A DNA stretch of 64,000 nucleotides, taken from contig CAWJZV010000024.1 of the NCBI GenBank assembly GCA_963847445.1, positions 160,001-224,000 on the forward strand, in the 5' to 3' direction. Both the position numbers and the translations under genes were made by a program. The stretch is from an uncultured delta proteobacterium. GTDB lineage: Bacteria > Desulfobacterota > Binatia > UBA9968. The notes below the pieces were generated by a model. That model did no database searches. It was not told where the DNA came from and saw only the letters and a program-made list of their open reading frames with translations. This document shows positions 1,154 to 63,171 of this stretch, one piece after another; position 1 is the first letter of the stretch, and each line of letters opens with the position of its first letter.

Positions 1154-1588
1154 CTAATTCTTCTTCCCCGGCTCGGCCTGATAGCCCTGTTCCTTCCATT
1201 GATTAACCGGGCAAAACGTCGTGCTCTGGAAACCCATCTCTTCGGCTAGCTTCGCAGCCTGCGAGCTTTGACGTCCACTGCCTCAGGTGAAGATGATGTA
1301 CGTTTCCTTGGCCAGTTTCTTTAGATGGCCTTCGAGTATTTCGAGTGGAATATTGATCGCCCCGGGAATGGTTTCTTTCTGGAATTGTTCCGGGCCGCGC
1401 ACGTCGATGATCAATATTTTGCCGGCATCGAGTTCTTTCTTGAGCTCGTCGGCCAGTTTTGACTTGGCGCCCACCGCCCAGTTGGTCTTGGGATCCACCG
1501 GATAGCGCGGTTGCGCCTGGGCCGCGAACGAAAATGTTGTCCACAGGATGACCGCAAGCAAGCCAACAACAGCTACTTGTGGCTTCAT
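1154..1588 (-). CDS. Exported rhodanese-like protein with in-frame UGA (probable selenocysteine) at the active site
   Basis: The ORF track stops at TGA 1283-1285, but the frame continues 42 more sense codons to TAG at 1154: ..IIDVRGPEQF..TIPGAINIPL..YIIFT-UGA-GSGRQSSQAAKLAEEMGF..W. This matches the rhodanese loop (YCxxGxRS). N-terminal signal peptide; RBS AGGAG. Confidence 0.85.
1248..1267 (-). promoter_or_regulatory. Putative bacterial SECIS hairpin (AGCU-CGCA-GGC-UGCG-A-AGCU)
   Basis: The hairpin begins 15 nt after the in-frame UGA; its G-containing 3-nt loop lies 23 nt downstream. Confidence 0.65.
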
Positions 1589-1623
1589 ATCCGCTCCTAT
1601 TTGCGTCCTGCGAACTTATTTGT

Positions 1624-2146
1624 TCAACCCCGATCCGACAATTCGAACGCCAGCGTCGCGTAACGCATGAAAACACCGCCGCGCGGTTCCGCCAGCGGAC
1701 CGTTGGCGACCAGGCATGCGATCACATGCTTGGCGCCGGGCTGCGCTTTGGCGCTCACCTCGACGCGCTGCGACGCGTTGATGCCGACGATGGTTCCGGC
1801 CGGCCGCTCGATCTTGCCGTCGATCCAAATCTCGCCGTAGTTATCGACGTTGGTTTCGAAGAATACCCGGTAATCGCGCAACGCCACGCCGTTCAGTTGC
1901 TCGGGCAGCATCGACGGCGATGCGATACCAAGCAAACGTGAAACCCTTGGAGATACTGCTGCGAATATTGGTGCAAACTTCCCAGCCTGAATCATCGAAG
2001 TCCGCCAGCCGCGGTGGCGCGGCCAATAGCTGCGCCGTAAGCCCTTCATTCGGCTGGCCCGGCACCAGCCCGGGGCCAATGCGCCACTGGCCTTTGACCT
2101 TTCGACAATCCTCCGCACTATTCAAATCCAAAGCTATCCTCGGCAT
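1624..2146 (-). CDS. Hypothetical protein, glycosidase-like jelly-roll/sugar-binding fold (one frameshift near 1915)
   Basis: ORF 1841..2146 (..FDDSGWE..FAWYR) joins 1624..2118 (..NVDNYGEIWIDG..); RBS GGAGG. Confidence 0.6.
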
Positions 2147-5186: not shown

Positions 5187-5462
5187 TGGTCCTTGGGCAC
5201 TCGCCGCTCCGCCACCCCAGGGCGTATGCCATACGCCCCTACAATCGGATTTCTTCCTTGGAATTTTTTGCGCTTTTTGCGCCCTTTGCGGTTAATTATC
5301 CCATGCCGAACTTCGTGTCCTTCGTACTACTATCCGTGATAGCCAAGAGGGCGGGTTTCAAACCCGCCCCTACGACTCCCGATATTTTTTGCGCTTTTTG
5401 CGTTCTTTGCGGCCATTCTTCTTTTCGGTTGCGGCGCAGCCGCGTTGTGATCTTCGTGGTGA
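5187..5462. repeat. Composite repeat array: two GTAG-REP hairpins (5220-5242, 5349-5373), tttgcg repeats, and a cttcgtg arm interrupted by a 123-bp cassette (5326-5448)
   Basis: Direct reading; the first ~100 bp are homologous to the reverse complement of 56090-56185. Confidence 0.8.
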
Positions 5463-7369: not shown

Positions 7370-7858
7370 ATGCCTAAAGTCACATCCCTCGGACATCTGG
7401 GTTTTCATGTGCGCGATATGGAACGCTCGGTGGCGTTCTACCGCGACATTCTCGGTTTAACCGTCAGCGACCGCAGCCCGCGCGGCGCCGTGTTCATGAC
7501 CAGCCAGGATCGCAGCGTCGAGCACCACGAGCTCTACCTGGCGCCGGGGCGCGACGACGACGGCAAGGTCAACGTCTTGCAGCAGATTTCCTTCCGCTGT
7601 CCGACGTTGAAGGATGTCAAGGATTTCTATCAACTATTCGTCGACAAGCAGGTGCCGATCAACCGCTGCGTCAGTCATGGCAACACCGTCAGCATCTACG
7701 CCAGCGACCCCGACGGCAACTCGGTGGAAGTCTACTGGCCGAGCGGCGTCGACGTGCCGCAACCCTTCGGCAAACCGATGGACTTGACCAAGAGCGAAGT
7801 GGAAATCCGCGAACAGCTCAATCAGATCCTTAGAGAATGGCAGAGCCAGGCGTCATAA
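7370..7858 (+). CDS. VOC/glyoxalase family protein
   Basis: LGHLGFHVRDMERSVAFYRDILGL..SIYASDPDGNSVEVY; RBS AGGAG. Confidence 0.9.
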   Translation: MPKVTSLGHLGFHVRDMERSVAFYRDILGLTVSDRSPRGAVFMTSQDRSVEHHELYLAPGRDDDGKVNVLQQISFRCPTLKDVKDFYQLFVDKQVPINRCVSHGNTVSIYASDPDGNSVEVYWPSGVDVPQPFGKPMDLTKSEVEIREQLNQILREWQSQAS

Positions 7859-7915
7859 AAACCGTTTTCAATAATCATTGACCATCGGCGAGCCCAGGAG
7901 GCATTGGAGTTGTCT

Positions 7916-8485
7916 ATGCCACGTATTCCCTATGTCGACCCGGATAAAGTTACCGACCCAGAGATCAAAGGCTATCTGGAGCGCGCTCGCCGTGAAGGCA
8001 CGCCGCGCCCTGAAAGCCAGGCCGTGCGCGCCAACGTCCCCGAGGTCATCCGCGCGTTCTCGCAGGCGTGGGAACTCACGTTCCGCACCGGCGTCGTCGA
8101 CCACGCGCTCAAAGAGCTTTGCCGGGTTTACGTTTCGAAATCGATTGACTGTCAATATTGAGGCGTGCAGCGCTCCGTCCAGGCTGGACGGCAAGGACTT
8201 ATTGAAGCGAAGTACGATGAGTTGCTCAACTTTGCCGACTCGGACAAATTCACCGAGCGAGAAAAAGTCGCGCTAACCTACACCAGCGCGATCGCCTGGA
8301 ACTCAGACATCGCCGACGACGCGCTCTGGGCAAAATTGCACCGACATTTTTCGATCCCAGAGTTGGTCGAGCTCGGTTTTTTCATCGGCCTCACCCTCGG
8401 CCAACAGCGCTGGATCAAAACCCTCGGCATCGACCATGGCGCCGTGCTCGGCGATACCACAGCCGGTCTCGCGCCAACGAAATAA
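7916..8485 (+). CDS. AhpD/carboxymuconolactone decarboxylase-like protein with CxxU motif (in-frame UGA at 8159-8161, probable selenocysteine)
   Basis: ORFs 7904..8161 and 8165..8485 are in the same frame and interrupted only by one TGA: LKELCRVYVSKSIDCQY-UGA-GVQRS..FTEREKVALTY..LHRHFSIPELVEL. The TGA is the second Cys of the AhpD-like CxxC. Confidence 0.88.
8175..8191 (+). promoter_or_regulatory. Putative bacterial SECIS hairpin (CCGUCCA-GGC-UGGACGG)
   Basis: Perfect 7-bp stem starting 13 nt after the in-frame UGA; G-containing loop 20 nt downstream. Confidence 0.75.
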
Positions 8486-8774: not shown

Positions 8775-9116
8775 GAAGGAGGACACGAAGGCGTCGGATA
8801 ACTAATATTTCGAACTTCGTGATCTTCGTACTACTATACTTGAAAGTTTGCGCGGCTCGCGCAAATTTTCGGTCATTGGGGATACTCGTACTGGGGAATT
8901 GACTCTCGCAAAGACGCAAACCTCGCCAAGTTCGGAAGGAAGATATGAATTAGCTTGAAGAATTTAGTCACCGTTATTTTTCGACCTTTGCGACCTTTTG
9001 CGTCTTTGCGAGAGATATTCCGAGTTTCGATTGCGGCTGTGCCGCGCTAGGCCCTTCGTGGTGAACACTTTATTTCTTATTTGGTTGCGGCTTCGCCACA
9101 CTGGGCTCGTCGTGGC
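8775..9116. repeat. cacgaag/cttcgtg palindrome carrying a 221-bp cassette (8830-9050) plus an extra cassette-end copy
   Basis: Homology to 2208-2419 and 39604-39821. Confidence 0.85.
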
Positions 9117-9138
9117 GCACAACACAATCTGTTTCTGA

Positions 9139-10803
9139 CTAATTCCCGCCAAGCGCCGCGACTTCTTCGACGGCAAAAACCGCCAGCGCTTCGCGCCGGT
9201 TGCGCACGGTGAGTTCGTGGCGCGGCAGGCTGGCCGTGTTCAACCCCGACTGCTTGGCGACTTCTGCCGAGATCACCAACTGACAGTGAAACTCCTTGGT
9301 CGCATCTTGCAGCCGGCTGGCGACGTTGACCGTATCACCGATAGCGGTGACGTGGATCGTGTCGCCGTAGCCCATGCGCCCTACCACCGCCGGCCCGCAG
9401 TGAATGCCGATGCCGATGCGCAGTGGCGCGCTGAGTTCTTCTGCGAGTGCTCCGCTGAGTTCGTCGACCCGCTCAATCATCGCCTGGGCAGCGGCAAGCG
9501 CTTGGCGGCAGCCTTCTTCGGGTCCGCTTTCGACGCCGAACAGCGCCATCACGCCGTCACCGACGAATTTGTCGATCATGCCGCCGCTCGAGACGATCGC
9601 CGCACCGACGGCGGCGAAATAGCTGTTCAAGAAAAATACTAAATCGTAGGGCAGCTTGGTTTCGGCGATGCCGGTGAACGAGCGGATATCGGCGAACATT
9701 ACCGCGATCATGCGTTCCTGGCCGGCGAGGTAAGCCGGTTGGCCATAACCCTCGCTCGCCTGAGCATGCGGCGGCAGGAGCGGCGTCACCGTGAGATTAT
9801 TCGTCGGCCGCAGCTGGCAGGCCAGTCTAACATCGGGCGCGGCGCCGACGCGCCGCAATACCTTCAACTCGCCGGCAGCCGGCGGCGGCAAATTCGCTGC
9901 GCCAAGAGTGACCCGCACTCGGCAGGTTGAGCAGCGCCCGCGGCCGCCGCAAACCGAAGCATGGGGAATCGCCGCTAAACGGCTCGCTTCGAGGACGGAG
10001 AAATTGCGCGGCGCCTGCACCTCCCGGCCATTGGGATACGTAATGCGGATGCGGCTGCGCCGCTCGACCAAACTTCGCGCATACCCGCGCTAGCAGCGCC
10101 AAGACAATCGCCGCGCCGAAAGTGATCAGCACGCCGTCATAGATCTGGTACAACACCGCTCGCTGGCTGCGCGGCGGCACTTTCGCAGCCACGAGGAAAC
10201 GCTCGAGCCATTCCGGCTGGCGCGCGATCAGGTTGGACACTTCCCGACCGGCACCGACGAAACCCAACAGCCCGCACACTGGGATAAGCAACGCCAGAGG
10301 CGAGCAGGTATGGCGCGATGCGCGGATACCATTTCTTCAATCGCAGCCAATAGTGGCAGCCGATACAGCCATGGGTCCAGGCGATGACAATCAGGATCGC
10401 CTGCTTCAATCCATCCATCGGCGCAGCATGCCAGAGGGTCAAAACCATCAAAGTGTAGGAATCGTCGACGCCAAAAAATTCATGGTTGAGCCGGGTGCCG
10501 ACGATATGGATCGTCAGCAACAGCGGAATGGTCAAACCGAATAACAGTTGCAGCATCTCGGCCACCGGCATGCGCCAATGGCGCCGCTGGTACAGCGCCC
10601 AGATCGCCAAACCCAAGTGGGTCAATAACGCGCTGTAAAGCATCGCCGTGCCGACCGGATTGCGCCACAAGCAGCAAAAACCACCACCGCCCCCACTCCA
10701 TCGCCGCCAGCGAAATCAAGCCGAGCGCATGATTGAGCAAGTGCGTCGACAAATAGGTGAGCAGAATTAGCCCCGTAACCAAACGTGTGCGCCGAACGTT
10801 CAT
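9139..10803 (-). CDS. Membrane-bound class III adenylate/guanylate cyclase with 2Fe-2S ferredoxin domain (CyaC-like); 2-3 frameshifts
   Basis: His-containing TM helices (THLLNHALGL, THLGL, HIVGTR, WTHGCIG), ferredoxin CGGRGRCSTC..RLACQ, cyclase FADIRSFT..DKFVGDG..IGDTVNVASRL. Confidence 0.85.
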
Positions 10804-11031
10804 GATTGCGCGCCAATCTACTACGACCGCGCCACCGCCGTCTATGCAACAACGCTGCAAGCCGAACAAGGTTATGATCCGAATTCCCGACGCCTCACCC
10901 CTTACCCCCCAGGCCTAGCTCCCATAGCCTTCCTCCTGTTGACTCCCTCCGCCAACTCGGCCTATTTATGGACGGTCAAGTTTTTCACCGCGTGCCGGAA
11001 CCGGCACGGGCTATTCGAAAGGAGCCAAATC

Positions 11032-12165
11032 ATGAGAGATGGATTTAAAATCATCGACGCCGACCGCCATGTGCTCGAGCCGTCGGATCTGTTCGCCAAA
11101 TATTTACCGGAAAAATTTCGCAGCCGGGTCGACATCCAGGGACCCAACCAGTCCTATCGTAGAGTAGACGGCGCGTTAATTTCCGACGCCGATCGGTTGC
11201 GCGACGCGACTAAACAAGAAGACTTCGGCTTTACCTTCGCCGCCTCGAAAAAATGGCGCGAGACCTTCGCCGATGCATTGGCGGCGAAATTCGACACCGC
11301 GTCCAACGTCCGCGACATGGACAAAGAAGGCGTCGACATCGGCGTCCTCTTCCCCACCGTCGGCCTGTACATCATGTGGCGTGACAATTTGGATCCCGAA
11401 CTCTCTGCCGCCATCTGCCGCGCCTATAACACCTGGATGTCGGACTATTGCAGCGCCAGCAACAAGCGCCTCTACGGCGTCGCCTTGATACCGCTACAAG
11501 ATCCGGTCCGCGCGGTGGAAGAATTGCAGCACGCCAAAAAGCTCGGCCTGGTCGGCATCTTCTGGCGGCCTAACAAAATCTGCGGCCGCACCCTATCGAG
11601 CCCCGACTACGATCCGATCTATGCGACCGCCGCCGACCTCGGCATGACCGTCTGCGTCCACGAAGGCGCGCGCACCGTGCTGGCGCAAGCCGGCTCGGAC
11701 CGCTACAGCGAGTTCGGCCGCCATGTCGCCTGCCATCCCTTGGAGCAGATGCTCGCCTGCTTGAATCTCTGCGCCGACGGCGTGCTGGAAAAATTTCCCA
11801 AGCTCAAGGTCGCCCATCTGGAATCGGGCTGCGGCTGGGTGCCGTTCTGGTTGGAGCGCATGGACGAGCATTGGGAACATGCCGGCCATGGCCAAGCCAA
11901 GACGACCAAAGAAAAACCGAGCTTCTACTTCAAGCGCCAATGCTGGACCAGCGCCGAAGCCGGCGAAGAGTTGGCGCCGGTTTTTGTCGAGCATGTCGGC
12001 GAGGATTACTTAATGGTCGCCACCGACTATCCGCACAGCGACTGCATCGGCAAATTCCCCGATCGCACCGTCGGCGATCTCACCACCAACAATCATCTCT
12101 CACAAGAAGCGCGCCGGAAAATTTTATGGGACAATCCGAAGCGCTTTTACGGACTGGAGGTTTGA
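11032..12165 (+). CDS. Amidohydrolase family protein (amidohydrolase_2)
   Basis: IIDADRHVLEP, VCVHEG, LESGCGWVPF, ATDYPHSD. Confidence 0.9.
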   Translation: MRDGFKIIDADRHVLEPSDLFAKYLPEKFRSRVDIQGPNQSYRRVDGALISDADRLRDATKQEDFGFTFAASKKWRETFADALAAKFDTASNVRDMDKEGVDIGVLFPTVGLYIMWRDNLDPELSAAICRAYNTWMSDYCSASNKRLYGVALIPLQDPVRAVEELQHAKKLGLVGIFWRPNKICGRTLSSPDYDPIYATAADLGMTVCVHEGARTVLAQAGSDRYSEFGRHVACHPLEQMLACLNLCADGVLEKFPKLKVAHLESGCGWVPFWLERMDEHWEHAGHGQAKTTKEKPSFYFKRQCWTSAEAGEELAPVFVEHVGEDYLMVATDYPHSDCIGKFPDRTVGDLTTNNHLSQEARRKILWDNPKRFYGLEV

Positions 12166-13361: not shown

Positions 13362-13823
13362 CTACCGAAACGTCCAACCTTTGTCTCGAATCAGCTGTAG
13401 CAGAGTTCGATGACTAATCCCGAAGTGGTCGCAGACGTTCGGTATCCGTGGACGATCCCCGGTTCCACTGCTCTTTTCTCCGGTCACAACGGTTGCGTTT
13501 TTTATTTTTGCAAGGGCGATCACAAACGGGTCCGCGCGGTTGCGGTCTTTCATCGCTCCGACGAGCCGTGGAAACTGATTCAAAATTTGCTGCGTTCCGA
13601 TTTGGACGTCTTCGTCAAGCGGTACGAACATCGCGCTGTTCACCTTAGCCCATTTATGAACTTCATCGTCTTTCTGACTTAACTCCAAAAGTACTTCATC
13701 AGGCGCTAGTAGTTCTTTAGCTTTGATCATTTCTTCAAGGTGTGACCAGAGCGATGGGAACACGTCCGGTGGATAATTTCTAACCCAGCCGTCGAGCAAC
13801 GCGCTCGTATCGATCACGTACAC
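13362..13823 (-). CDS. PIN-like domain protein (DUF4411-like)
   Basis: N-terminal YVIDTSALL, YPPDVFPSLW, ADPFVIALA..VVTGE..RIPNVCDHFGI. Confidence 0.85.
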   Translation of the reverse strand: MYVIDTSALLDGWVRNYPPDVFPSLWSHLEEMIKAKELLAPDEVLLELSQKDDEVHKWAKVNSAMFVPLDEDVQIGTQQILNQFPRLVGAMKDRNRADPFVIALAKIKNATVVTGEKSSGTGDRPRIPNVCDHFGISHRTLLQLIRDKGWTFR

Positions 13824-13837
13824 CAGTTAAGTCCGAT

Positions 13838-15022
13838 CTAAGCCGCGCGATCCGCAACATCCTGCTCAATAGTGGACAAATGCTTAAGTTTTACGCCCAA
13901 CATCTCGGCTACATCGGACGAATTGATTGCTTCAGTGTGGTAGGCCTCAAGGACCAGCCGAATAAAAGTCCTTCCCAAGTCACGGGTCTTGAGCACGTGG
14001 TGTGGCACAAACCCGCCTTGAGTTCGTTCCGCGTCTCTCCTGTAGGCGTCAACAATTTCTTGACGCCTCTGTTGGTAAAACGATTGCGATATCCGGCCTA
14101 GCGTAAGCAGACGACGCAGTACAACCTCCTGGCTGACGGAATACTTTTCAGCGAGCTGGCGTATCTCCGCCTCCGCCCAAGTTGCACGAGATGCTTTACC
14201 AGTCACAAGCGGCTCGCTGAGAAACTCTCTCGATGGTAAAAGAAAAACTCCAGCGACTTGGTTACAAAAGATTTCGGTCATTTCTTCTTGGCTTCCCCCT
14301 CGTGTTGTCGTGTGAAGATCGCATAGCCCTCCACGATTCAGCAGAACATGAGCAAACTCGTGGATAAGCGTAAATACTCTTCCGCGCGGAGAGTCTTTAG
14401 CGTTTACAACGATAACGGGATACATCGCGGCACTGATTGAAAACCCACGAACTTCGTCGAGAGTCACTGCACCAGTTTGAAAAACGAGAACACCGACCCT
14501 CTCCAAGGCAGAGATCCAACCGTGGAGGGCCTCATATCGGCCCCGCCAATCGTACTGTTCTTCCAATGTAACACCGAGAAGTTGTCGCGCTTCAGCAGCA
14601 ACATGATCCGCATCACGTAGATTAGACCTGACTATATGAGTTCGCGGAGGATCAACTCCAATGCTCGCTGCGAGTTCCAATGCCATTTCGCGACGCATTT
14701 GTGCGCGTCTGATTTCCAAGCTCAATTTTGGGCTTGCCGGCGCCTGTGTTAGGTCCGGCAACCGGCGAAAGTCTTTGAGTGCGTCAAAATCGCGAGGGGC
14801 TTCCGAAAGAAAAAAAACAGCCAACGGCCGTTTATAAACGTTTGCCGCCTTTCGCAATTGCCCAATGGTAGGACTGGAAATGCCAGACTCGGATTCCCAT
14901 TCGGACAGCTTAGACTCCTTGACGCCAATCTTCCTCGCCGCATCTGCTAGCGGAAGATTGAGGCTTTCACGAGCCCACTTGAGCACAGAAGGCCTAACTA
15001 ACGCCTTTATCTGTTTAGCCAT
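13838..15022 (-). CDS. XRE-HTH + ImmA/IrrE-family metallopeptidase
   Basis: N-terminal HTH (LKWARES..LSEWES..PTIGQLRKAA), RVFTLIHEFAH zinc motif, EIFCNQVAGVFLLP. Confidence 0.9.
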   Translation of the reverse strand: MAKQIKALVRPSVLKWARESLNLPLADAARKIGVKESKLSEWESESGISSPTIGQLRKAANVYKRPLAVFFLSEAPRDFDALKDFRRLPDLTQAPASPKLSLEIRRAQMRREMALELAASIGVDPPRTHIVRSNLRDADHVAAEARQLLGVTLEEQYDWRGRYEALHGWISALERVGVLVFQTGAVTLDEVRGFSISAAMYPVIVVNAKDSPRGRVFTLIHEFAHVLLNRGGLCDLHTTTRGGSQEEMTEIFCNQVAGVFLLPSREFLSEPLVTGKASRATWAEAEIRQLAEKYSVSQEVVLRRLLTLGRISQSFYQQRRQEIVDAYRRDAERTQGGFVPHHVLKTRDLGRTFIRLVLEAYHTEAINSSDVAEMLGVKLKHLSTIEQDVADRAA

Positions 15023-30702: not shown

Positions 30703-31098
30703 ATGAATACTAAATCGGTCATGGGCACCGGATTGCTCGTGGCGACTTTGGCGCTGGCAGGTTCGCCAGTAATTGCCGCGGAAACCAAGGTCACCCCGGT
30801 GGAGAAAACCGAGTTGAGACAGGACCGCAAGGAAATCCGCCAAGACCGCCGGGAGATCAAGAGCGACCGCCGAGAGTTGCGCAAGGACCGCAAAGAGCTG
30901 CGCTCTGACCGCCGCGAGTTACGCCGCGATCTCAAGCACGGCGCTAGCAAAGAAGAAATCGCCCAAGACCGCGCAGAGATCGCCCAGGGCAAGGCAGAGA
31001 TTAAAGGCGACAGGAAGGAATTGAAACAGGACCGCGTAGAACGGCGCCAGGATCGCAAAGAGCTGCGAGCCGATCGCCGCGACGCCGTAAAGAACTAA
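30703..31098 (+). CDS. Exported heptad-repeat (DRxELRx) helical protein
   Basis: Signal peptide, then ~10 repeats of a 7-aa unit (21-nt periodicity); RBS AGGAGG. Confidence 0.8.
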   Translation: MNTKSVMGTGLLVATLALAGSPVIAAETKVTPVEKTELRQDRKEIRQDRREIKSDRRELRKDRKELRSDRRELRRDLKHGASKEEIAQDRAEIAQGKAEIKGDRKELKQDRVERRQDRKELRADRRDAVKN

Positions 31099-33206: not shown

Positions 33207-34638
33207 TTGAACACGCCCCTCAGCCAAGAGCAAAAGATTATCCACTTTCTAAACCGCACGAGCTTCGGGCCAACTCAAGTGGAAATCCAAAGAGCCGGCC
33301 GCATCGGCACCCGCGCCTATCTTGACGAACAGCTCACGCCGGAACGGATTGCGGACAATGGCGTCGACGAAAAAATCGCGGGGTTGAAAACCATGCGGCT
33401 TAACAGCCGCGAGCTGATCGAACTCTATCCACCGCCAAGACTACAAAGACAGCAAGCCAACCAGCAGGGCGGCATGGCCATGGAGTCCATGGACGGCCCG
33501 CGCGTCGTCATCCTCGAACTGCAACAGGCCAAGCTTTTGCGCGCGCTCTACAGCAACCGTCAGCTCTACGAAGTCATGGTGGATTTCTGGGGCAATCATT
33601 TCAACATCAATATCGCCAAGGGCGCCAACCGCTGGCTGACCACTGCCTACGATCGCGACACGATCAGGCCGTTGGCTCTAGGCAAATTTAAGGATTTGTT
33701 GATGGCGACGGCAAAAAGCCCGGCGATGCTTTTTTATTTGGACAACTGGATGAGCGCCAGCCCGGATTCGCCCGGCGCCAAAATGGGCGGGCCGAACAAT
33801 CGGCGCCGCGGCTTGAACGAAAACTACGCCCGCGAGCTCATGGAATTGCATACTCTCGGCGTCGACGGCGGTTACACGCCAAAAAGATGTTCAGGAGGTC
33901 GCCCGCTGCTTCACCGGCTGGACGATCGTCCAGCCGCAGGGCCAGGGCGTGTTTCGTTTCGAGCCGCGCATTCATGACAACGGCGAAAAGACCGTCCTCG
34001 GCCAGCGCATTCCGCGCGGCGGCGGCATGGACGATGGTCTGCGCGTCATTGATATACTAGTCAAGCATCCGTCAACGGCGCACGTTCATCGCGACCAAGT
34101 TGGTCCGCCGCTTCATCGCCGACGACCCGCCGCGCGGCGATGGTCAACAAAGCCGCCGAAGCGTTTCGCCAGAGCGACGGCGATATTCCGACGGTAATGC
34201 GCGCCATCGTCGACGCGCCGGAGTTTTTCGCCGGCGAGCTCTATCAGGCCAAGATTAAAAATCCCTTCGAGTTCGTCGCCAGCGCCCTGCGGGTCACCGG
34301 CAGCGACGCCCAGGTGACGCACCAACTGTTGCGTTACTTGGGTCGCATGGGCGAACCGCTATTCCTGGCCCAAGCGCCCACCGGCTATCCCGACATCGCG
34401 GCTTCTTGGATCAGCGCCGATATGTTGCTGACGCGGATGAACTTCGTCGCCGATCTGGTCGCCAACCGTTTGCCGGGAGCCAAAGTGCCGGTAGAAACGT
34501 TGAAGAATCGCGACGGGCTCGATCCGCCGCATCGCGCCGGACTCGCTATCGCCGGCAACCCAAGCCGCCCTGGCGGAAACCGAGGGCAATCAAGCCATCG
34601 CGCTGCTGTTAGCGGCGCCGGAATTTCAAAGGAGATAG
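33207..34638 (+). CDS. DUF1800 family protein (about three frameshifts)
   Basis: HFLNRTSFGP, QLYEVMVDFWGNHFN, SPAMLFYLDN, NENYARELMELHTLGV, C-terminal APEFQRR*. Confidence 0.88.
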
Positions 34639-34640
34639 AA

Positions 34641-35858
34641 ATGAACTCCTCGCGCCGCCGATTTTTACAGTCCACCGGTTTGGGATTTCTCGCCCTGGGC
34701 TTGCCGCCAGCGTTTCTCGTGCGCATTGCGCAAGCACAAGCGGCAAAGAACAAATCTCTCGTCGTGGTGTTTCAACGCGGCGCCATGGATGGCTTGAACG
34801 TGGTCATTCCGTTCAAGGATCCGGCCTATTACCAACTGCGCCCGAACATCGCTGTGGCTGAGCCGGGAATGGGCGAAGAACGGGCCATCGATCTCGATGG
34901 CTTTTACGCGCTCCATCCGGCGTTGGCGCCGCTCAAGAGCATCTACGACAAAGGTCATCTGGGTTTTATTCAGGCAACCGGTTCGCCCGATAACACGCGT
35001 TCCCATTTCGACGCCCAGGACTACATGGAAATCGGCACGCCGGGCATTAAAAGCACGCCGGACGGCTGGCTCAACCGCTGTTTGCTGGAAAACAAGAAAA
35101 GTGAATCGCACTTTCGCGGCGTCGCCGTCACCGCGCAACTGCCGCGCATGTTGGCCGGCCGCGCACCGGCGCTTACGCTGTCGTCCATTGAGGAGTTTCG
35201 CTTCCGCAATCAAGCCTTGGGCACGGCTTTGCAGAAGCTCTACGCCAACACCCGGGACAGCGAACTCCGCTTCGGCGCCGAGAGTCTCTTTGGCGCGATG
35301 ACCGAGCTCAAACGACTCGATGCCAAAATCCCGCTCTCGGCGGAACGTTACCCGGCGGGTCGATTTGGCACAGGTCTGGCGCAGATCGCCCGCTTGATCA
35401 AAGCCGATGTCGGTTTGGAACTCGCTTTCACCGAAATCGGCGGCTGGGACACCCACGCCAACGAAGGTGGCGCCACCGGCCAGCTGGCCAACCGGCTGAA
35501 AGAATTGGGTGAAGCACTTGCGGCGTTTTACCGCGACCTCGGCGACCGGATGGACGATGTCGTCCTGCTGACGATGTCCGAGTTCGGCCGCACCGCGCGG
35601 GAAAATGGCAATCGCGGCACCGACCACGGCCACGCCAACGTCATGTTCGCCATCGGTGGCAAAGTGCGCGGCGGCAAAGTCTACGGCCGTTGGCCCGGCC
35701 TGGCGCCGGAAATGCTTAATGAAGGCAGAGACCTCGCTCTAACCACGGACTTCCGCACGGTCTGCGGCGAAGTGCTGACACGCCATCTTGGCCAGAAAGA
35801 CATGAGCAAAATCTTCCCAGGTTTTAGCGCGAGCGCAAAATTGGGACTACTAACTTAG
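34641..35858 (+). CDS. DUF1501 family protein (Tat signal)
   Basis: SRRRFLQ, VVFQRGAMDGLN, RSHFDAQ, GGWDTH, SEFGRT..N..GTDHG. Confidence 0.92.
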   Translation: MNSSRRRFLQSTGLGFLALGLPPAFLVRIAQAQAAKNKSLVVVFQRGAMDGLNVVIPFKDPAYYQLRPNIAVAEPGMGEERAIDLDGFYALHPALAPLKSIYDKGHLGFIQATGSPDNTRSHFDAQDYMEIGTPGIKSTPDGWLNRCLLENKKSESHFRGVAVTAQLPRMLAGRAPALTLSSIEEFRFRNQALGTALQKLYANTRDSELRFGAESLFGAMTELKRLDAKIPLSAERYPAGRFGTGLAQIARLIKADVGLELAFTEIGGWDTHANEGGATGQLANRLKELGEALAAFYRDLGDRMDDVVLLTMSEFGRTARENGNRGTDHGHANVMFAIGGKVRGGKVYGRWPGLAPEMLNEGRDLALTTDFRTVCGEVLTRHLGQKDMSKIFPGFSASAKLGLLT

Positions 35859-39527: not shown

Positions 39528-39835
39528 TCACCACGAAGGCACGAAGGACACGAAGGGTTCAGAGAATTCGGACAATTTAAACTCCGACCTTCGTGATCTT
39601 CGTACTCCTATGCTGAATAGTTGTCTCCGTCTGCGCAAATTTTCCGGTGCCAGGAATACTAGAACGTGGGATGGACTCTCGCAAAGGCGCAAAGCTCGCG
39701 AAGTTCGGAGGGAAGAGATGAATTATCTTGAAGAATTTATTCACCGTTATTTTCCGACCTTTGCGGCCTTTGCGTCTTTGCGAGAGATATTCCGAGTTTC
39801 GGTTGCGGCTTGCCGCGCTAGGTCCTTCGTGGTGA
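39528..39835. repeat. caccacgaag palindrome carrying a 218-bp cassette (39604-39821)
   Basis: Near-identical to the reverse complement of 2208-2419. Confidence 0.88.
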
Positions 39836-39878
39836 ATGTTTTTCACCCAATTTAGCTGCAGCTCTTCCGCACTAGGGT

Positions 39879-41264
39879 CTAGTCTCGTGTCACCGCATGC
39901 TGGCTATGAATCTCCGCCCACGCGCCGTCCATGAGCTTTTCCATGACTGCGGTCAGTGACGCAAGCGGCACGCGAATCTGCTGCATGTTGTCGCGGTCGC
40001 GAATCGTTACTTTGCCATCGGCGGCGGCCTTGTCATCGCCGACGGTTTGGACGTCCACGGTGACGCAGAACGGCGTGCCGACTTCGTCTTGGCGGCGGTA
40101 GAGTCTGCCGATGGACGCCGTGTCGTCGTACACCGAATGCCAGCGCTTGCGCAGATCGGCGCACAGCTTATGCGCGGTCTCGACGATCTGAGCATTTTTC
40201 TTCAACAGCGGTAGCACCGCGATTTTGATCGGCGCCAGCTCGGGATGAAAGTTCAGCACCACGCGCTTCTCTCCCTTCACCTCGTCCTCGCGATAAGCAT
40301 CGACGAGAAACGCCAAGGTGCCGCGGTCGGCGCCGGCCGACGGCTCGATGACGAAGGGAACTATTTTTTGTTTGCTCTCTTCGTCGAAGTATTCCAGCGT
40401 CTTGCCGCTGAACTGGGCATGCTGCTTCAGATCGAAGTCGGTGCGGTTGGCGACTCCCTCCAGTTCGCTCCAACCCATCGGAAAAAGATACTCGATGTCG
40501 GCGGTGCGTTTGGCGTAATGCGCCAGTTCGTCTTTCTCATGCTCGCGCAGCCGCAGGTTCTCCTTGCGAATGCCGTATTTCGGATACCAGGCGAAGCGCT
40601 CGTCGAGCCAGCGCTGGTGCCAAGCTTCATCGGTCCCCGGCATTACGAAAAATTCAATTTCCATCTGCTCGAATTCGCGGGTGCGAAAAGTGAAATTTCC
40701 CGGCGTGATCTCGTTGCGGAAGGACTTGCCGATCTGGGCGATGCCGAAGGGCAGCTTCAAGCGCATCGATTGCTGGACATTTTCAAAATTGACGAAAATC
40801 CCCTGGGCCGTCTCCGGGCGCAGATAGGCGACCGCGGCATCGTCTTCCACCGGCCCCATGAAAGTCTTGAACATCAGATTGAACATGCGCGGTTCGGTGA
40901 GCTGGCAAGCGTCGTGCTGCCCAGGCTGTTTCGACGGCTTTTGCGGGCAACGCGCGTCCTCCAGTTTGTCGGCGCGAAAACGCCCCTTGCACAGCTTGCA
41001 ATCGACCATCGGGTCGGTGAAGTGGTCCAAATGACCGCTCGCCTGCCAGACTCGCGGATGCATCAGAATCGACGCATCGAGCCCGACCATATCGCCGCGG
41101 CTCTGCACGCAGTCGCGCCACCAAGCGCGCTTGACGTTGTTCTTGAGCTCGACCCCGAGCGGCCCATAATCCCAACAAGAGCCGGTGCCGCCATAAATCT
41201 CACTCGACTGAAAAATAAACCCGCGCCGCTTGCACAGCGACACGATCTTGTCCATTTCGACCAT
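39879..41264 (-). CDS. glyQS: Glycine--tRNA ligase, alpha2 (homodimeric) type
   Basis: [47 protein letters not shown]. Confidence 0.96.
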
Positions 41265-43094: not shown

Positions 43095-43918
43095 CTACCC
43101 GAGCAGAACCGTGCCGTGAAACACTTCCGTCGCCCCGCCGGTCATATAGACGCGATTGTTGTCGCGCCACTCAATCACCAGATCGCCGCCCTTGAGATGG
43201 ACCGTGACTTTCCGTTCGGTGCGGCCGGTGATGACGCCGGCAACGCCGACGGCGCTGGCGCCGGTGCCGCAGGCCCAGGTTTCGTCCGGCACCGCGCTCC
43301 CAGGTCCGCATGGCGCACTTCCGTCGGACTGAGGATCTTGATGAACTCGGTGTTCACCCGTTTGGGGAAAAACCGATGATGCTCGAAATCGGGGCCGATC
43401 TTTTGCAGATCCAAGGAATCGATATCGTCGAGATAAATCACCGAGTGGGGATTGCCCATCGACACGCAGGTGATTTCGTAAGTTTTACCCTGCACCGTGA
43501 GCGGACGATTTTTGATCTCGCCGTCGGCATCGACAGGAATTTTGCGTCCTTCGAGAATCGGTTCGCCCATGTCGACCTCGACCAGATCGCCGACGATCTT
43601 CGGCCGGATGATGCCGGCTAAAGTCTCCACTTCGAGAGCGCGTTTCTGCGTGATGCCATGATCATAGACATACTTGGCGAAGCAGCGGATGCCGTTGCCG
43701 CACATCTCCACCTGGCTGCCGTCGGCGTTGTAGATCTCCATTTTGAAGTCGGCGACTGTCGAGGGATGAACCGTCAGCAACTGATCCGCGCCGATGCCAA
43801 AGCGGCGGTCGCAGAGCTGCGTGGCCACGGCTTCGAGGTTCTCGATGTTGTTCTTCAAACAATCGAGAAAGACGAAATCGTTGCCCGCCCCATGCATCTT
43901 GGTAAATTGCAGTTCCAT
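43095..43918 (-). CDS. dapF: Diaminopimelate epimerase (frameshift)
   Basis: [32 protein letters not shown]. Confidence 0.95.
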
Positions 43919-43939
43919 GTTTGCTTTGAACCTTCGGAC

Positions 43940-43962
43940 GGGCGTATGCAATACGCCCCTAC
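43940..43962 (-). repeat. GTAG-type REP hairpin
   Basis: gggcgtatgcaatacgcccctac between lysA and dapF. Confidence 0.75.
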
Positions 43963-43974
43963 CAGCCATTTCTC

Positions 43975-45254
43975 TTATTGCAGCGCCGGCGGTATCACTT
44001 CGCCGTTGATCAGATCGTCGAGGCTCTCGCGCTTGCGCACGACGTAATACTTGATCGCCGTCGACCAGGATCTCGGGCGGCTTGGGATGCGAATTGTAGT
44101 TCGACGCCATGGTAAAGCCGTAGGCGCCGGCGCTCATCACCGCCAGTAAATCGCCGCGTTTGGGCCGGGCAATCTCGCGATCCTTGGCGAAGAAATCGCC
44201 GCTTTCGCAAATCGGCCCGACGACGTCGGCGTTGATCGTTTCCGCCTTGCGTCTCGAACCACCGGCCGAATCGCCTGATAGGAACCGTAGAGCGCCGGCC
44301 GGATCAAATCGTTCATGCCGCCGTCGACGATGACGAACTTCTTCGTGTCGGTTTCTTTGATGTACTGCACTTCGGTCAGAAGAATGCCGGCGTTGCCGAC
44401 GATCACCCGGCCCGGTTCGAGGATCAGCGTGACGTCCGAGCCCTTCCAAGCCTTGGATGATCGCCTTGGCATAGTCATTCGGGCAGCGGCGGATTCTCGT
44501 CGTTATAGTTGATACCCAAACCGCCGCCCAAGATCGAGATAGCGAATTTGCGCGCCTTCTTTTCTCATCTCACCGAGCAGCACCCGGTCGAGATACTCGC
44601 GCAACTTGGCGAGAGCATCGACGAACGGCGTCAAGCGACGTCAGCTGGGAGCCAATATGGCAGTCGACACCGACGACTTCGAGGTTTTTAAGCGATACCG
44701 CCTTTTTATAGGTTTCGACCGAGCGCTTGATGTCGACGCCGAACTTGGCCTTTTTCATGCCGGTGGAAATATAGGGATGGGTCTGCGGATCGACATCGGG
44801 ATTGACGCGCAGACTGATCGGCGCTTTCTTGCCGATGCCGGCGGCGATCTCGTTTAACGCGGTCAACTCCTCTTCGGACTCGACGTTGAACATCAAGATG
44901 CCGGAGTTGAGCGCGTACTCGACTTCGTCCTTCTTTTTGCCGACGCCGGAAAAAACGATCCGCTTGGGATCGGCGCCGACTTTCAGGGCGCGAAAGAGTT
45001 CGCCGCCCGAGACGATATCGAAACCGCTGCCCTGCTTGGCGAAGCGGCGCAGCAGCGCCAGATTGGAATTGGCTTTCACCGAAAAGCAAACGATATGCGG
45101 CACCTTGGCAAAGGCTTGGTCGAAGACGCTGTAGTGGCGCTGTCAACGTCGCCAGACTATAAACATAGGCCGGCGTGCCGACTTCCTGAGCGATGCGCTT
45201 GAGCGCAACGTCCTCCGCAAACATTTCACCGTTGCGATATTCAAAATGATTCAT
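43975..45254 (-). CDS. lysA: Diaminopimelate decarboxylase (several frameshifts)
   Basis: [49 protein letters not shown]. Confidence 0.93.
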
Positions 45255-47177: not shown

Positions 47178-48377
47178 TATTTTGCCTTCGCTAGTTTACG
47201 CAGCCGCAGCCGCAACGCATTCAATCGAATAAACCCCTCGGCGTCGGCTTGGCGGTAAACCTGATCGGCCTCGAACGTCGCCACGTTGGTATCGTAGAGC
47301 GAGGCGTCGGACTTGCGGCCGACCACCATGACGTTGCCTTTGTATAATTTCACGCGCACCCGGCCGGTGACGTTGGCCTGGGCGGCGTCGATGGTTTTTT
47401 GCAGCACTTCGCGCTCCGGCGCGAACCAGTAGCCGTAGTAGATCATCTCGGCGTAGCGCGGGATCAGCGAATCGCGCAAGCGCAGCACCTCGCGGTCCAT
47501 GGTAATCGACTCGATGCCGCGATGCGCTCCATGGAGAATCGTGCCGCCGGGAGTTTCATAAACACCGCGCGACTTCATGCCGACATAGCGGTTCTCGACC
47601 ACGTCGACCCGGCCGATGCCATGCTTGGCGCCGATGTCGTTCAAGCGCGCCAACAGATTCGCCGGCGAGAGCTTTTTGCCGTTCACTGCCACCGGATCGC
47701 CGCGCAGATAATCGATCTCGATGTATTCGGCGCGGTTGGGCGCCTTCTCCACCGGCCGGCACCAGACGAACATATCCGCCGGCGGCTTCTTTCCACGGAT
47801 CCTCGAGAACGCCGCCTTCATAACTGATGTGAAACAAGTTGCGATCGGTGCTGTAAGGTTTGGCCTTGGTGACCGGCACCGGGATGCCATGCTTGCGCGC
47901 ATAGTCGATCAAGGTCGAGCGCGCATTTAAATTCCACTCGCGCCAGGGAGCGATGACTTTGATGCCCGGCTTGAGCGCATAGTAAGTGAGCTCGAAGCGC
48001 ACCTGATCGTTGCCCTTGCCGGTGGCGCCATGGGAAACCGCGTCGGCTTTTTCACGCACGGCGACGTCGATCTGCCCTTTGGCAATCAACGGCCGGGCGA
48101 TGGAGGTGCCGAGCAAATAGGAACCTTCGTAAACCGCGTTGGCGCGCAGCATCGGGAAGACGTAATTTTTAACGAACTCTTCGCGCAGATCGCCGATCAC
48201 GACTTTGCTCGCGCCGGTCTGCATCGCCTTTTTCTTGACCGCCTGGAGATCTTCGCCCTGGCCCAGGTCGGCGCAGAAGGCGATGACTTCGCAGCCGTAT
48301 TCTTCTTTGAGCCAGCGTAAAATAACCGACGTATCCAAACCGCCGGAATAAGCCAACACCACTTTCTTAACGTTCAT
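47177..48377 (-). CDS. argG: Argininosuccinate synthase (one frameshift near 47790)
   Basis: [34 protein letters not shown]. Confidence 0.96.
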
Positions 48378-51526: not shown

Positions 51527-51666
51527 GTGTCACCCCGGAGGTCCTAGCACGACATAACCGCAACCAAAATAAGAAAAGTCGGATTCACCACGAAGGCACG
51601 AAGGACACGAAGGCTTCGGATGTCTAATGTTCCGAACTTCGTGCTCTTCGTGTCCTTCGTGGTGAA
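51527..51666. repeat. Uninterrupted caccacgaag...cttcgtggtg palindrome (51584-51666) preceded by a solitary cassette end (ctagcacgacataaccgcaacc)
   Basis: Serves as the empty-site reference for the cassette insertions. Confidence 0.8.
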
Positions 51667-51706
51667 ATACTCTTTCCCGATCTACACAAAAGCCTGAAGA
51701 ACCAAT

Positions 51707-61975: not shown

Positions 61976-63171
61976 TCAATCTCTTGCCAGTACCAGCGTC
62001 ACGTTGGCGCCGCCAAAAGCGAACGAGTTGCTCACCGCCCAGCGCGGCGGATGTCCTAGTCTGGTCGTCGGCGTGGCCAATTGCAACACCGGTAATTTGG
62101 GATCGTCGATGCCATCCCATAAATGTGCCGGCAGCTTGCCGGTCGGATTGTCGTCCTGCATCGCCAGCCAGCACAGTCCCGCTTCGATCGCCCCCGCCGC
62201 CCCCAGGGCATGGCCGGTAAAGGGTTTGGTCGAGCTGACGAAAACATGATGACCGCCGAACACCCGATGGATTAACTCAGCTTCCATGGCATCGTTCTGC
62301 ACCGTGGCGGTGCCATGTAAATTGACATATTCGATCTCCGCCGACGTTACCGCGGCGCGCGCCAAAGCCTGTTCTAGCGCCAAGCGCCCGCCGACGCCAG
62401 CGGGATCTGGCGCCGACATATGGTAGCCGTCGGACGACTCGCCCCAACCGCGCAGGCTCACCGTTGCCGGTTCGCGGCTGACGAGAAATAACGCCGCGCC
62501 CTCGCCGATGTTGATGCCGTCGCGATTGCGGCTGAGCGGATTACAGCGCGTCAGTGCTGAGCGATTCAAGGGCGGCGAAGCCGGCCACCGTGAAGCGGCA
62601 CAAAGTGTCAACGCCGCCGGCCAGCACGGCGTCGCAAAGCGTTCATGCGGATCAGCCGCGCCGCGCTGGCCAGCGCCTTGGCGCTCGACGCGCAGGCGCT
62701 GGAGTGGACATAGGCCGGTCCGCAAATACCCAGCTCCCTCGCCAAGACCGTAGCCGGTGAAGCCAACTCTTGCTGGCCATAGTGAAATCCTTCCGGCAAC
62801 GCCCCCGTCGAGACATAATCACGCAGCGCGGCTTCCGCTTCGGCGACGCCGGAGGTGCTGGTGCCGATGACGACACCGACGCGTGCGTCGCCATAGCGTT
62901 CGATCGCACTTTCCACGGCCGGACGGATTTGCTCCAAAGCGGCGAGAGCGATCTGATTATTGCGGCTACGGTCAGGCAAGGGCCATTCATCCATCGGCGG
63001 CAATGGCAAATTGCCATCGATCCGGCCAAGCGGCAATGGCCGTCCCGGTGAATAGCCATCGGACAACGCCACGCCACTCCGCGCCAGTTCCAACAGCGCG
63101 CGCTTGGTTGCGTCGAGGCTATTGCCGAGCGGGCTAATCATGCCCAGCTGGTTGAGATAAATCATGCTCAT
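61976..63171 (-). CDS. Beta-ketoacyl-ACP synthase (ApeO-like; frameshifts)
   Basis: SRNNQ, GTSTSG, SSACASSAKAL, NLHGTAT..ND, TGHALGAAG, SNSFAFGG. Confidence 0.9.

Follow-up and report, generated by a model that had tools for sequence, protein, structure and literature searches.

The stretch of DNA analysed here (the window) spans 64,000 nucleotides from an uncultured delta proteobacterium of the Binatia. On its minus strand, at 1154..1588, it encodes what we consider, with a probability of about 0.8, to be a genuine selenoprotein gene, specifying a small exported PspE-like single-domain rhodanese with selenocysteine (Sec) at the position of the catalytic nucleophile. The narrower statement that the gene encodes a Sec-containing rhodanese commands higher confidence than this statement as a whole, and the specification of a soluble periplasmic product somewhat less. 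The gene comprises 144 codons followed by a stop: on the minus strand it opens with an ATG at 1588..1586, 5 nt downstream of a Shine-Dalgarno AGGAG (1594..1598), meets an in-frame TGA at 1285..1283 (codon 102) and closes with a TAG at 1156..1154. When the TGA is translated as Sec (U), the catalytic loop reads YIIFT-U-GSGRQS and is followed in the 144-residue product by SQAAKLAEEMGFQSTTFCPVNQWKEQGYQAEPGKKN, the frame running on through SSQAAKLAEEMGF up to FCPVNQWKEQGYQAEPGKKN.

The read-through protein matches the Pfam Rhodanese family PF00581 with 64.3 bits (residues 46-122, profile positions 2-88 of 102; curated cut-off 22.2), while the truncated open reading frame (ORF) of 101 residues that ends at the TGA scores 42.2 bits and covers profile positions 2-66. 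This gain upon read-through indicates that the segment 3' of the UGA continues the rhodanese domain. The reading frame and the domain match spanning the UGA also bear out an earlier interpretation made from the letters of this DNA without database searches (the sequence-only reading), which had placed the TGA in the active-site loop of a rhodanese with the frame continuing to the TAG. NCBIfam ranks PspE first for this protein, with scores that miss the equivalog cut-offs (NF007627 and TIGR02981, with 50.0 bits against a cut-off of 102 and 46.1 against 126.3, respectively); the two Sec-rhodanese models of that library likewise remain below theirs (NF041203 rhodanese_LYCAU, 30.4 against 115; NF045694 TsoB, 16.4 against 805). 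Judged by these profile scores, the protein is PspE-like rather than a PspE equivalog.

A search of 5.8 billion proteins gave 398 candidates, of which 282 count as relatives at E <= 0.001, and the homologue classes given here refer to the 120 listed cluster representatives, which were sorted by script. The script found 101 of these to stop right before the catalytic position, 92 of them at exactly 101 residues, and a further one (P0045; 101 residues, ending in IVFK) was judged by eye to stop at the same site, bringing the total to 102 of the 120 listed clusters. Among the rest, 15 are full-length with a Cys at the site, in the motif FTCGTG (FTCGTGRTSSQAAKLAEE...), two are full-length with a W and one is a shorter fragment. 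The alignment of homologues for Cys or Sec, which the sequence-only reading had put forward as a check, thus places Cys opposite the UGA in those 15 clusters. The two W entries are most simply explained as gene calls in which the TGA was translated under code 4 or 25.

A scan of genome contigs returned eight loci, six of which (L001-L006) carry a full-length match with 73-94% protein identity; their source metagenome-assembled genomes (MAGs) are labelled delta proteobacterium, Thermodesulfobacteriota and Syntrophobacter sp. The comparisons at the DNA level use the window together with these six loci (seven copies), the distant L007 and L008 (45% identity over 52 residues) being left out. The TGA at codon 102 is invariant in all seven copies. 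The 42 codons 3' of it contain neither a stop nor a gap in any copy, and the variable columns downstream of the TGA are distributed over the first, second and third codon positions as 9/5/20, as against 21/21/55 upstream. The open frame combined with the predominance of third-position change is what selection on the reading frame beyond the TGA produces. The Shine-Dalgarno sequence is AGGAG in four of the seven copies (window, L001, L002 and L005) and GGGAG in L003; L004 and L006 differ. At the other end of the gene, the last six codons (E-P-G-K-K-N; window 1157-1174) have one variable column out of 18 across the seven genomes, a degree of conservation that exceeds the need of the protein.

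If the TGA were a real stop, the gene would be a decaying or truncated rhodanese whose product is an exported fragment of 101 residues without the catalytic residue. Decay, however, would not place the stop always at the position of the catalytic Cys and always as TGA, never as TAA or TAG. Such a stop would agree with the behaviour of gene callers, which end 102 of the 120 listed clusters there, with an extra TAA five codons upstream of the TGA in L002, and with the Sec machinery not being seen in the window; but it leaves unaccounted for the 42 codons that stay open in all seven copies while changing mostly at third positions, and whose residues match those of the Cys homologues residue for residue. 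The sequence-only reading had itself named a post-UGA segment that is not conserved as protein in homologues as a reason to abandon it, and the segment proves to be conserved in just this manner. We regard a real stop as highly improbable.

Bacterial selenocysteine insertion sequence (SECIS) elements consist of a stem-loop shortly 3' of the UGA with a G in the apical loop. A SECIS-like hairpin, AGCUCGCA-GGC-UGCG(A)AGCU, with 8 bp and one bulged A, is found at 1248..1267 on the minus strand. It is separated from the UGA by a variable spacer of 15 nt, and occupies nucleotides 19-38 downstream; when the U of the UGA is counted as the first position, its loop begins with a G at +27, a geometry that would suit a SECIS. 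The block that holds it (1268..1238) is invariant in 29 of its 31 columns across the seven genomes. We counted synonymous change using only codons with an invariant, degenerate amino acid: 28 of 40 such codons show it in the region of codons 27-101, as against two of ten in codons 108-117 and none of six in the stem-loop codons 108-113 (Fisher p = 0.009 and 0.002, respectively, relative to the upstream region). This freezing of synonymous sites suggests that the RNA is constrained over and above the protein. Folded by itself the hairpin has a free energy of -8.7 kcal/mol (z = -1.47), and 17 of 200 shuffled sequences fold equally well. Two other structures were considered and rejected: a long stem formed by a GGC just after the UGA with a GCC at +40 is, by eye, not kept in the other genomes, and a second hairpin from the minimum free energy (MFE) fold, CUG...CAG around 1256..1225, has its pairing broken by G-to-A changes in L003 and L006.

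The apical sequence of this hairpin, CA-GGC-UG, recurs in a second TGA-interrupted gene of the window. This gene (7904..8485, plus strand; likely ATG at 7916) lies 6.6 kb from the rhodanese gene and directly 3' of a glyoxalase-family gene (7370-7858), and codes for a candidate selenoprotein of the CMD/AhpD-like type: its match to PF02627 (residues 46-127) spans the TGA (8159-8161, plus strand), which falls within the CxxU motif C-Q-Y-U. A perfect hairpin of 7 bp, CCGUCCA-GGC-UGGACGG (8175-8191, plus strand), starts 13 nt after the TGA, with its loop at +24. The heptamer CAGGCTG occurs at eight sites on the two strands of the 64 kb, only two of them within stems of at least 5 bp, and these two are the sites 27 nt (rhodanese) and 24 nt (CMD gene) after an in-frame TGA. 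Both the TGA and the hairpin of the CMD gene are also present in L004. Among the 120 listed CMD homologues, 82 have CxxC and 10 have CxxW at the UGA site, the remaining 28 being missed by the pattern, with several of them visibly CxxC. In the accessible text of a 2026 review, CxxU proteins of the AhpD/CMD type are listed selenoprotein families (PMC13188914). The CMD gene is the sole credible additional case from a screen for TGA-interrupted frames, which yielded 116 mechanical candidates, 15 of them outside the shadow of larger genes and sent to Pfam; TGAs that seem to interrupt the frames of ArgG and LysA were rejected as out-of-frame sequence following indels. The apical motif common to the two TGA genes is the best evidence here for a SelB in this organism that recognises hairpins of this type. 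The second TGA gene argues, if indirectly, for Sec decoding and for the presence of the machinery behind it.

These observations also bear on the possibility that the UGA is read through by other means, namely as Trp, Cys or Gly via a near-cognate or suppressor tRNA, or through a lineage-wide reassignment of UGA. The two database entries with W at the site and the unverified Sec machinery would be compatible with this. However, at the position of the nucleophile only Cys or Sec can work, and the conserved hairpin shares its apical motif with the second, CxxU-encoding gene. Furthermore, two neighbouring genes of these genomes, one for a 173-residue protein upstream of the rhodanese and one for a convergent NMT1-like protein, have stops that switch among TGA, TAA and TAG. 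This interchange at the ends of orthologues shows that TGA serves as a normal stop codon in these genomes, with no reassignment of the genetic code, and set against it the invariance of the rhodanese TGA in all seven copies goes beyond chance. Accordingly, we see read-through without Sec as very unlikely, and codon 102 is almost certainly read as Sec.

An AlphaFold2 model of the Sec-rhodanese, built from 21 sequences, has a mean predicted local distance difference test score (pLDDT) of 85.6, exceeding 90 over the mature domain. In this model the strand 97-101 leads into U102, with the loop U-G-S-G-R-Q, and then into the helix 106-117, which is the geometry of a rhodanese active site; in a Foldseek comparison with the PDB, all of the matches listed are rhodanese domains. 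The closest solved relative by sequence is the Escherichia coli thiosulfate sulfurtransferase PspE (2jtq; E 1.9e-9). The two proteins are alike in being small and in having a single domain, a six-residue loop and the same kind of helix after x-G-R-Q-S; the loop of PspE reads CNAGRQS, with a Cys where the U-GSGRQS of the present protein has Sec. Unlike PspE, the latter has an extension of ~20 residues at the mature N-terminus (PRYPVDPxTxWAVGAK, with Y29, D32, T35, A38 and G40 invariant) and an additional invariant Cys126, and there is no psp operon context here. Cys126 (codon at 1211..1213, minus strand; motif F-C-P) is invariant in 21 of 21 sequences, including both Sec and Cys forms, and is a candidate resolving cysteine. 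In the model it follows the strand 121-125, just as U102 follows the strand 97-101. The strands corresponding to these two are neighbours in the sheet of rhodanese folds generally. If they adjoin here too, a selenenylsulfide between U102 and Cys126 would be sterically plausible, their proximity being presumed from this arrangement.

The first 25 codons (1514..1588, minus strand) are predicted to specify a signal peptide with the n-region M-K, the h-region V5-F21 and the c-region A-A-Q-A. The N-terminus, MKPQVAVVGLLAVILWTTFSFAAQA|QPRYP, starts with M-K-P-Q, contains one Lys (K2) and has Ala at -3 and -1 of the predicted signal peptidase I (SPase I) cut (A23-Q24-A25|Q26). The hydrophobic core V5-F21 is 17 residues long with a maximum Kyte-Doolittle mean of 3.26 over an 11-mer, and there is neither a lipobox Cys nor a twin Arg. 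The same signal architecture is found in all 40 homologue N-termini examined, with the Sec forms ending in ...AAQAQPRYP. By these features the N-terminus is a classical signal for the general secretory (Sec) pathway and SPase I, with a predicted mature protein of 119 residues after the cut at A25; the secretory signal peptide (AAQA-Q) that the sequence-only reading had recognised is thereby upheld by hydropathy, by the A-x-A site and by conservation in homologues. A number of the Cys-form homologues (P0015-P0019, P0024, P0028 and P0030) have in their n-region an Arg-Arg with hydrophobic residues after it (e.g. YRRTILT), which resembles a twin-arginine signal, whereas only one Lys is found in the Sec forms; the Sec and Cys forms may use different export routes.

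The hydrophobic segment could also be viewed as an uncleaved signal anchor that keeps the Sec-rhodanese attached to the inner membrane on its outer side: a core of 17 residues is rather long for a cleaved signal, the signal-peptide call was made by inspection and hydropathy alone, and membrane-bound rhodaneses do exist, with YgaP among the PDB matches. Nevertheless, AAQA|QP is invariant in the Sec forms and has a similar counterpart in the Cys forms (FAQQQP), constituting a typical cleavage site for which an anchor would have no need. In addition, the nearest relative to have been characterised, PspE, is described as a soluble protein of the periplasm (PMC2593051). The tethered form is therefore unlikely in our judgement, and a cleaved and exported Sec-rhodanese is preferred.

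For such an enzyme, the following course of events may be envisaged. The ribosome would meet the UGA at codon 102, and the hairpin 15 nt on, with its GGC loop at +27, would recruit SelB and Sec-tRNA, as its anatomy and conservation suggest; on the same grounds, Sec would be inserted at the catalytic position and translation would continue for another 42 codons. The first 25 residues, judging from their sequence, would direct the chain to the secretory (Sec) translocon and be cleaved off after AQA, leaving an enzyme of 119 residues in the periplasm or otherwise outside the cytoplasm. In that compartment U102, carried by a six-residue loop of the sulfurtransferase type (U-G-S/T-G-x-x), could use its selenolate to take sulfane sulfur from a donor, e.g. 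thiosulfate or polysulfide, and the sulfur would be passed to an acceptor via the usual double displacement of rhodaneses. Cys126, which is invariant and follows the strand 121-125 (probably the neighbouring strand), is a plausible resolving partner. A small exported sulfur carrier with the rhodanese fold and one catalytic Cys (not Sec) is found in Sud, which transfers polysulfide sulfur in the periplasm of Wolinella succinogenes; Sud is absent among the listed sequence (PDB) and fold matches of the present protein.

A more far-reaching proposal, which we put forward as speculative and rather doubtful, is that the clade represents a dedicated, selenium-based periplasmic enzyme of redox chemistry and sulfur transfer and not merely PspE with Sec in place of Cys. 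A Sec102-Cys126 selenenylsulfide couple at the ends of adjacent strands would serve it to shuttle or reduce polysulfide or selenium species outside the cytoplasm. In this proposal, the Sec form would be the dominant one (102 of the 120 listed clusters), the Cys forms might take another, twin-arginine-like export route, and the gene would be tied functionally to the adjacent gene for a jelly-roll protein (see below). The Sec102-Cys126 couple, if true, is reported for no described rhodanese selenoprotein.

Several points weigh against the interpretation as an exported Sec-rhodanese. No selA, selB, selD or tRNA-Sec is found in the 64-kb window (57 ORFs scanned; 0 tRNA genes), the Sec machinery is likewise absent from the 20 scanned flank ORFs of the related loci, and no sulfur or selenium pathway is evident among the neighbour genes in the window and the scanned flanks. 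As for the hairpin, with post-UGA stretches of 45 nt and 66 nt as many as 130 and 174 of 200 shuffled sequences, respectively, fold equally well, and the MFE structures of the longer stretches prefer pairings other than the proposed one. Since the hairpin is invariant, covariation cannot be counted. Rfam returns no family at the gathering score anywhere in the window, and at E values up to 10 it gives only chance-level matches around the rhodanese and CMD hairpins. The Arg of the active-site loop, R106, varies among the seven Sec forms (R, R, P, R, R, A, Q), and the signal peptide was judged by inspection and hydropathy only. Two of the seven gene copies are defective, L002 having a TAA in place of the Tyr97 codon and L004 a deletion of 1 nt in the signal-peptide codons; each of these lesions may be an error or may represent decay in its own genome. 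Finally, the base-level quality of the window is low, as frameshifts in it look like the outcome of an indel-rich assembly rather than biology. The gene upstream of the rhodanese has a 1-nt insertion near 1910 relative to L001, L003 and L004 that breaks its frame, and further frameshifted genes are ArgG (47196-48377), which leaves the frame after ~residue 200, LysA/DapF (43175-45103), where LysA exits and re-enters the frame and runs into DapF, DUF1800/DUF1501 (33207-35858) and a ketosynthase (61976-63077).

In view of these many indel errors, one could suppose that the true codon 102 is TGC or TGT and that the TGA arose in sequencing or assembly. However, the errors observed in the window are indels and not substitutions, whereas the TGA is a matter of substitution. 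The same TGA is seen in six independent assemblies and is implied by ~100 independent metagenomic clusters that end there. Hence, the TGA is untouched by the quality of the assembly, and a misread codon is scarcely credible. The TGA of the rhodanese gene is neither a sequencing error nor a pseudogene stop.

The surroundings of the Sec-rhodanese gene are conserved. In six of six related loci the gene order is MurJ (on the opposite strand), a TctC-type binding protein, PrpD/MmgE, the 173-residue protein, the rhodanese and the convergent NMT1-like binding protein, and genes further out at these loci code for an HpaB-like protein, a 2-hydroxyacid dehydrogenase and an M24 peptidase. The immediate upstream neighbour of the rhodanese gene (1624..2146, minus strand) encodes a stand-alone jelly-roll protein that measures 173 residues in its relatives. 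It has no Pfam match and no sequence match in the PDB; its AlphaFold2 model (pLDDT 75.4) aligns with the N-terminal sugar-binding domains of glycoside hydrolase family 2 (GH2) with a Foldseek TMq of 0.57-0.61, and the Atlas concurs. The protein lacks a hydrophobic N-terminus and is thus expected to remain cytoplasmic. Its family has 1760 matches as against 282 for the rhodanese, and the names borne by its matches suggest Candidatus Binatia and deltaproteobacteria-like MAGs as the hosts of the clade. The sequence-only reading had suggested that the exported rhodanese might work with this adjacent jelly-roll protein, with a gap of 36 bp between the genes. The fold (GH2-N-type) and the adjacency, retained in all six loci, stand; the gap is 35 nt on recounting, the neighbour's TGA stop being at 1626..1624, and the working partnership finds no support, given that the neighbour has no signal peptide and belongs to a far larger family. 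The jelly-roll and rhodanese genes probably share a transcript, but a physical partnership of the two proteins across the membrane is not supported.

A few other features of the region may be recorded. A dispersed intergenic repeat with internal inverted repeats occurs at 2193-2490, 5220-5460, 8794-9118, 39528-39880 and 51567-51668, the best pair being 2193-2318 and 39711-39836 (126 nt at 96%). A copy of it between PrpD and the jelly-roll gene accompanies a long spacer, which amounts to 380 nt in the window and 546 nt in L001, as against 134-175 nt in L003, L004 and L006. At L006 alone, a gene at 9919-11253 (minus strand), ~3.5 kb from the Sec-rhodanese, encodes a fusion of a metallo-beta-lactamase domain (persulfide-dioxygenase-like), a rhodanese domain and a YgaP-type transmembrane segment. 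In the window, a direct repeat with a periodicity of 21 nt and seven registers of a 53-nt unit (30802-31082) lies inside an ORF (30703-31098) just upstream of a gene for an extracytoplasmic function (ECF) sigma factor, and encodes a heptad-like repeat rich in Arg, Asp and Lys. At 13362-15022 (minus strand), a DUF4411 protein is encoded beside a helix-turn-helix (HTH)/IrrE-type M78 peptidase regulator, as is characteristic of modules that are mobile or associated with defence.

Rhodaneses with Sec have a history in selenoprotein surveys, which we summarise from the accessible parts of the sources. The earliest listing of rhodanese-related sulfurtransferase selenoproteins, in 2005, came from the Sargasso Sea. 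In the deltaproteobacterial symbiont of Olavius (2007), Sec-rhodaneses were among the most abundant selenoprotein families, with eight genes and no Cys homologues in that data set. A 2022 review has the Sec-rhodanese as 'COG0607 (PspE) form 1', and the 2026 review distinguishes five Sec-rhodanese forms, two of which ('forms 2/4') have UxxG (PMC13188914). The motif U-G-S-G in a PF00581 protein fits these 'UxxG' forms of COG0607, the match being one of motif only (PMC13188914). Like the COG0607 (PspE) Sec-rhodaneses, the present protein combines a single PF00581 domain with Sec in place of the catalytic Cys, UxxG, Cys homologues and deltaproteobacteria-like hosts; it differs in its signal peptide and second conserved Cys, neither of which is mentioned for those forms in the accessible descriptions. 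The exported Sec-rhodanese described here belongs to an already catalogued selenoprotein family.

A further comparison is offered by the polysulfide reductase MccSep (ExtKL), a multihaem selenoprotein of Geobacter sulfurreducens, for which experiments established both the periplasmic location and the removal of the signal peptide at residue 25 (PMC13510729). Like the present protein, it has a Sec encoded by UGA and carries its signal peptide at the N-terminus, and sulfane sulfur is what it works on (PMC13510729). Unlike the rhodanese, it has a cytochrome c fold, which is unrelated, and a different gene cluster that includes a Cys-type rhodanese-like protein, ExtH. As far as these sources go, the sequence-only reading was right that Sec-containing rhodanese-like proteins exist, these having been catalogued since 2005, and overstated the case in calling a periplasmic seleno-sulfurtransferase unusual: Sec-rhodanese families are catalogued, PspE is a periplasmic single-domain rhodanese of E. 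coli (PMC2593051) and MccSep too is periplasmic. A literature search, with subscription papers and supplements outside its scope, found no explicit description of a Sec-rhodanese bearing a signal peptide or of a U...C pair in such a protein; a search on Binatia and selenocysteine returned nothing.

Given that this kind of protein is already known, the gain is incremental. It adds to the catalogue of rhodanese selenoproteins a well-supported and widespread environmental clade, with more than 100 clusters at 90% identity. Standard gene callers cut nearly all genes of this clade at 101 residues and name the products SseA-like, which implies that annotation pipelines systematically lose the catalytic half of the protein. 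The clade also lends itself, as a compact natural model, to the study of two questions, namely what benefit selenium brings to a sulfurtransferase and how a selenoprotein is exported by the secretory (Sec) pathway, and its size of 12 kDa together with the natural Cys counterparts makes it experimentally convenient for both.

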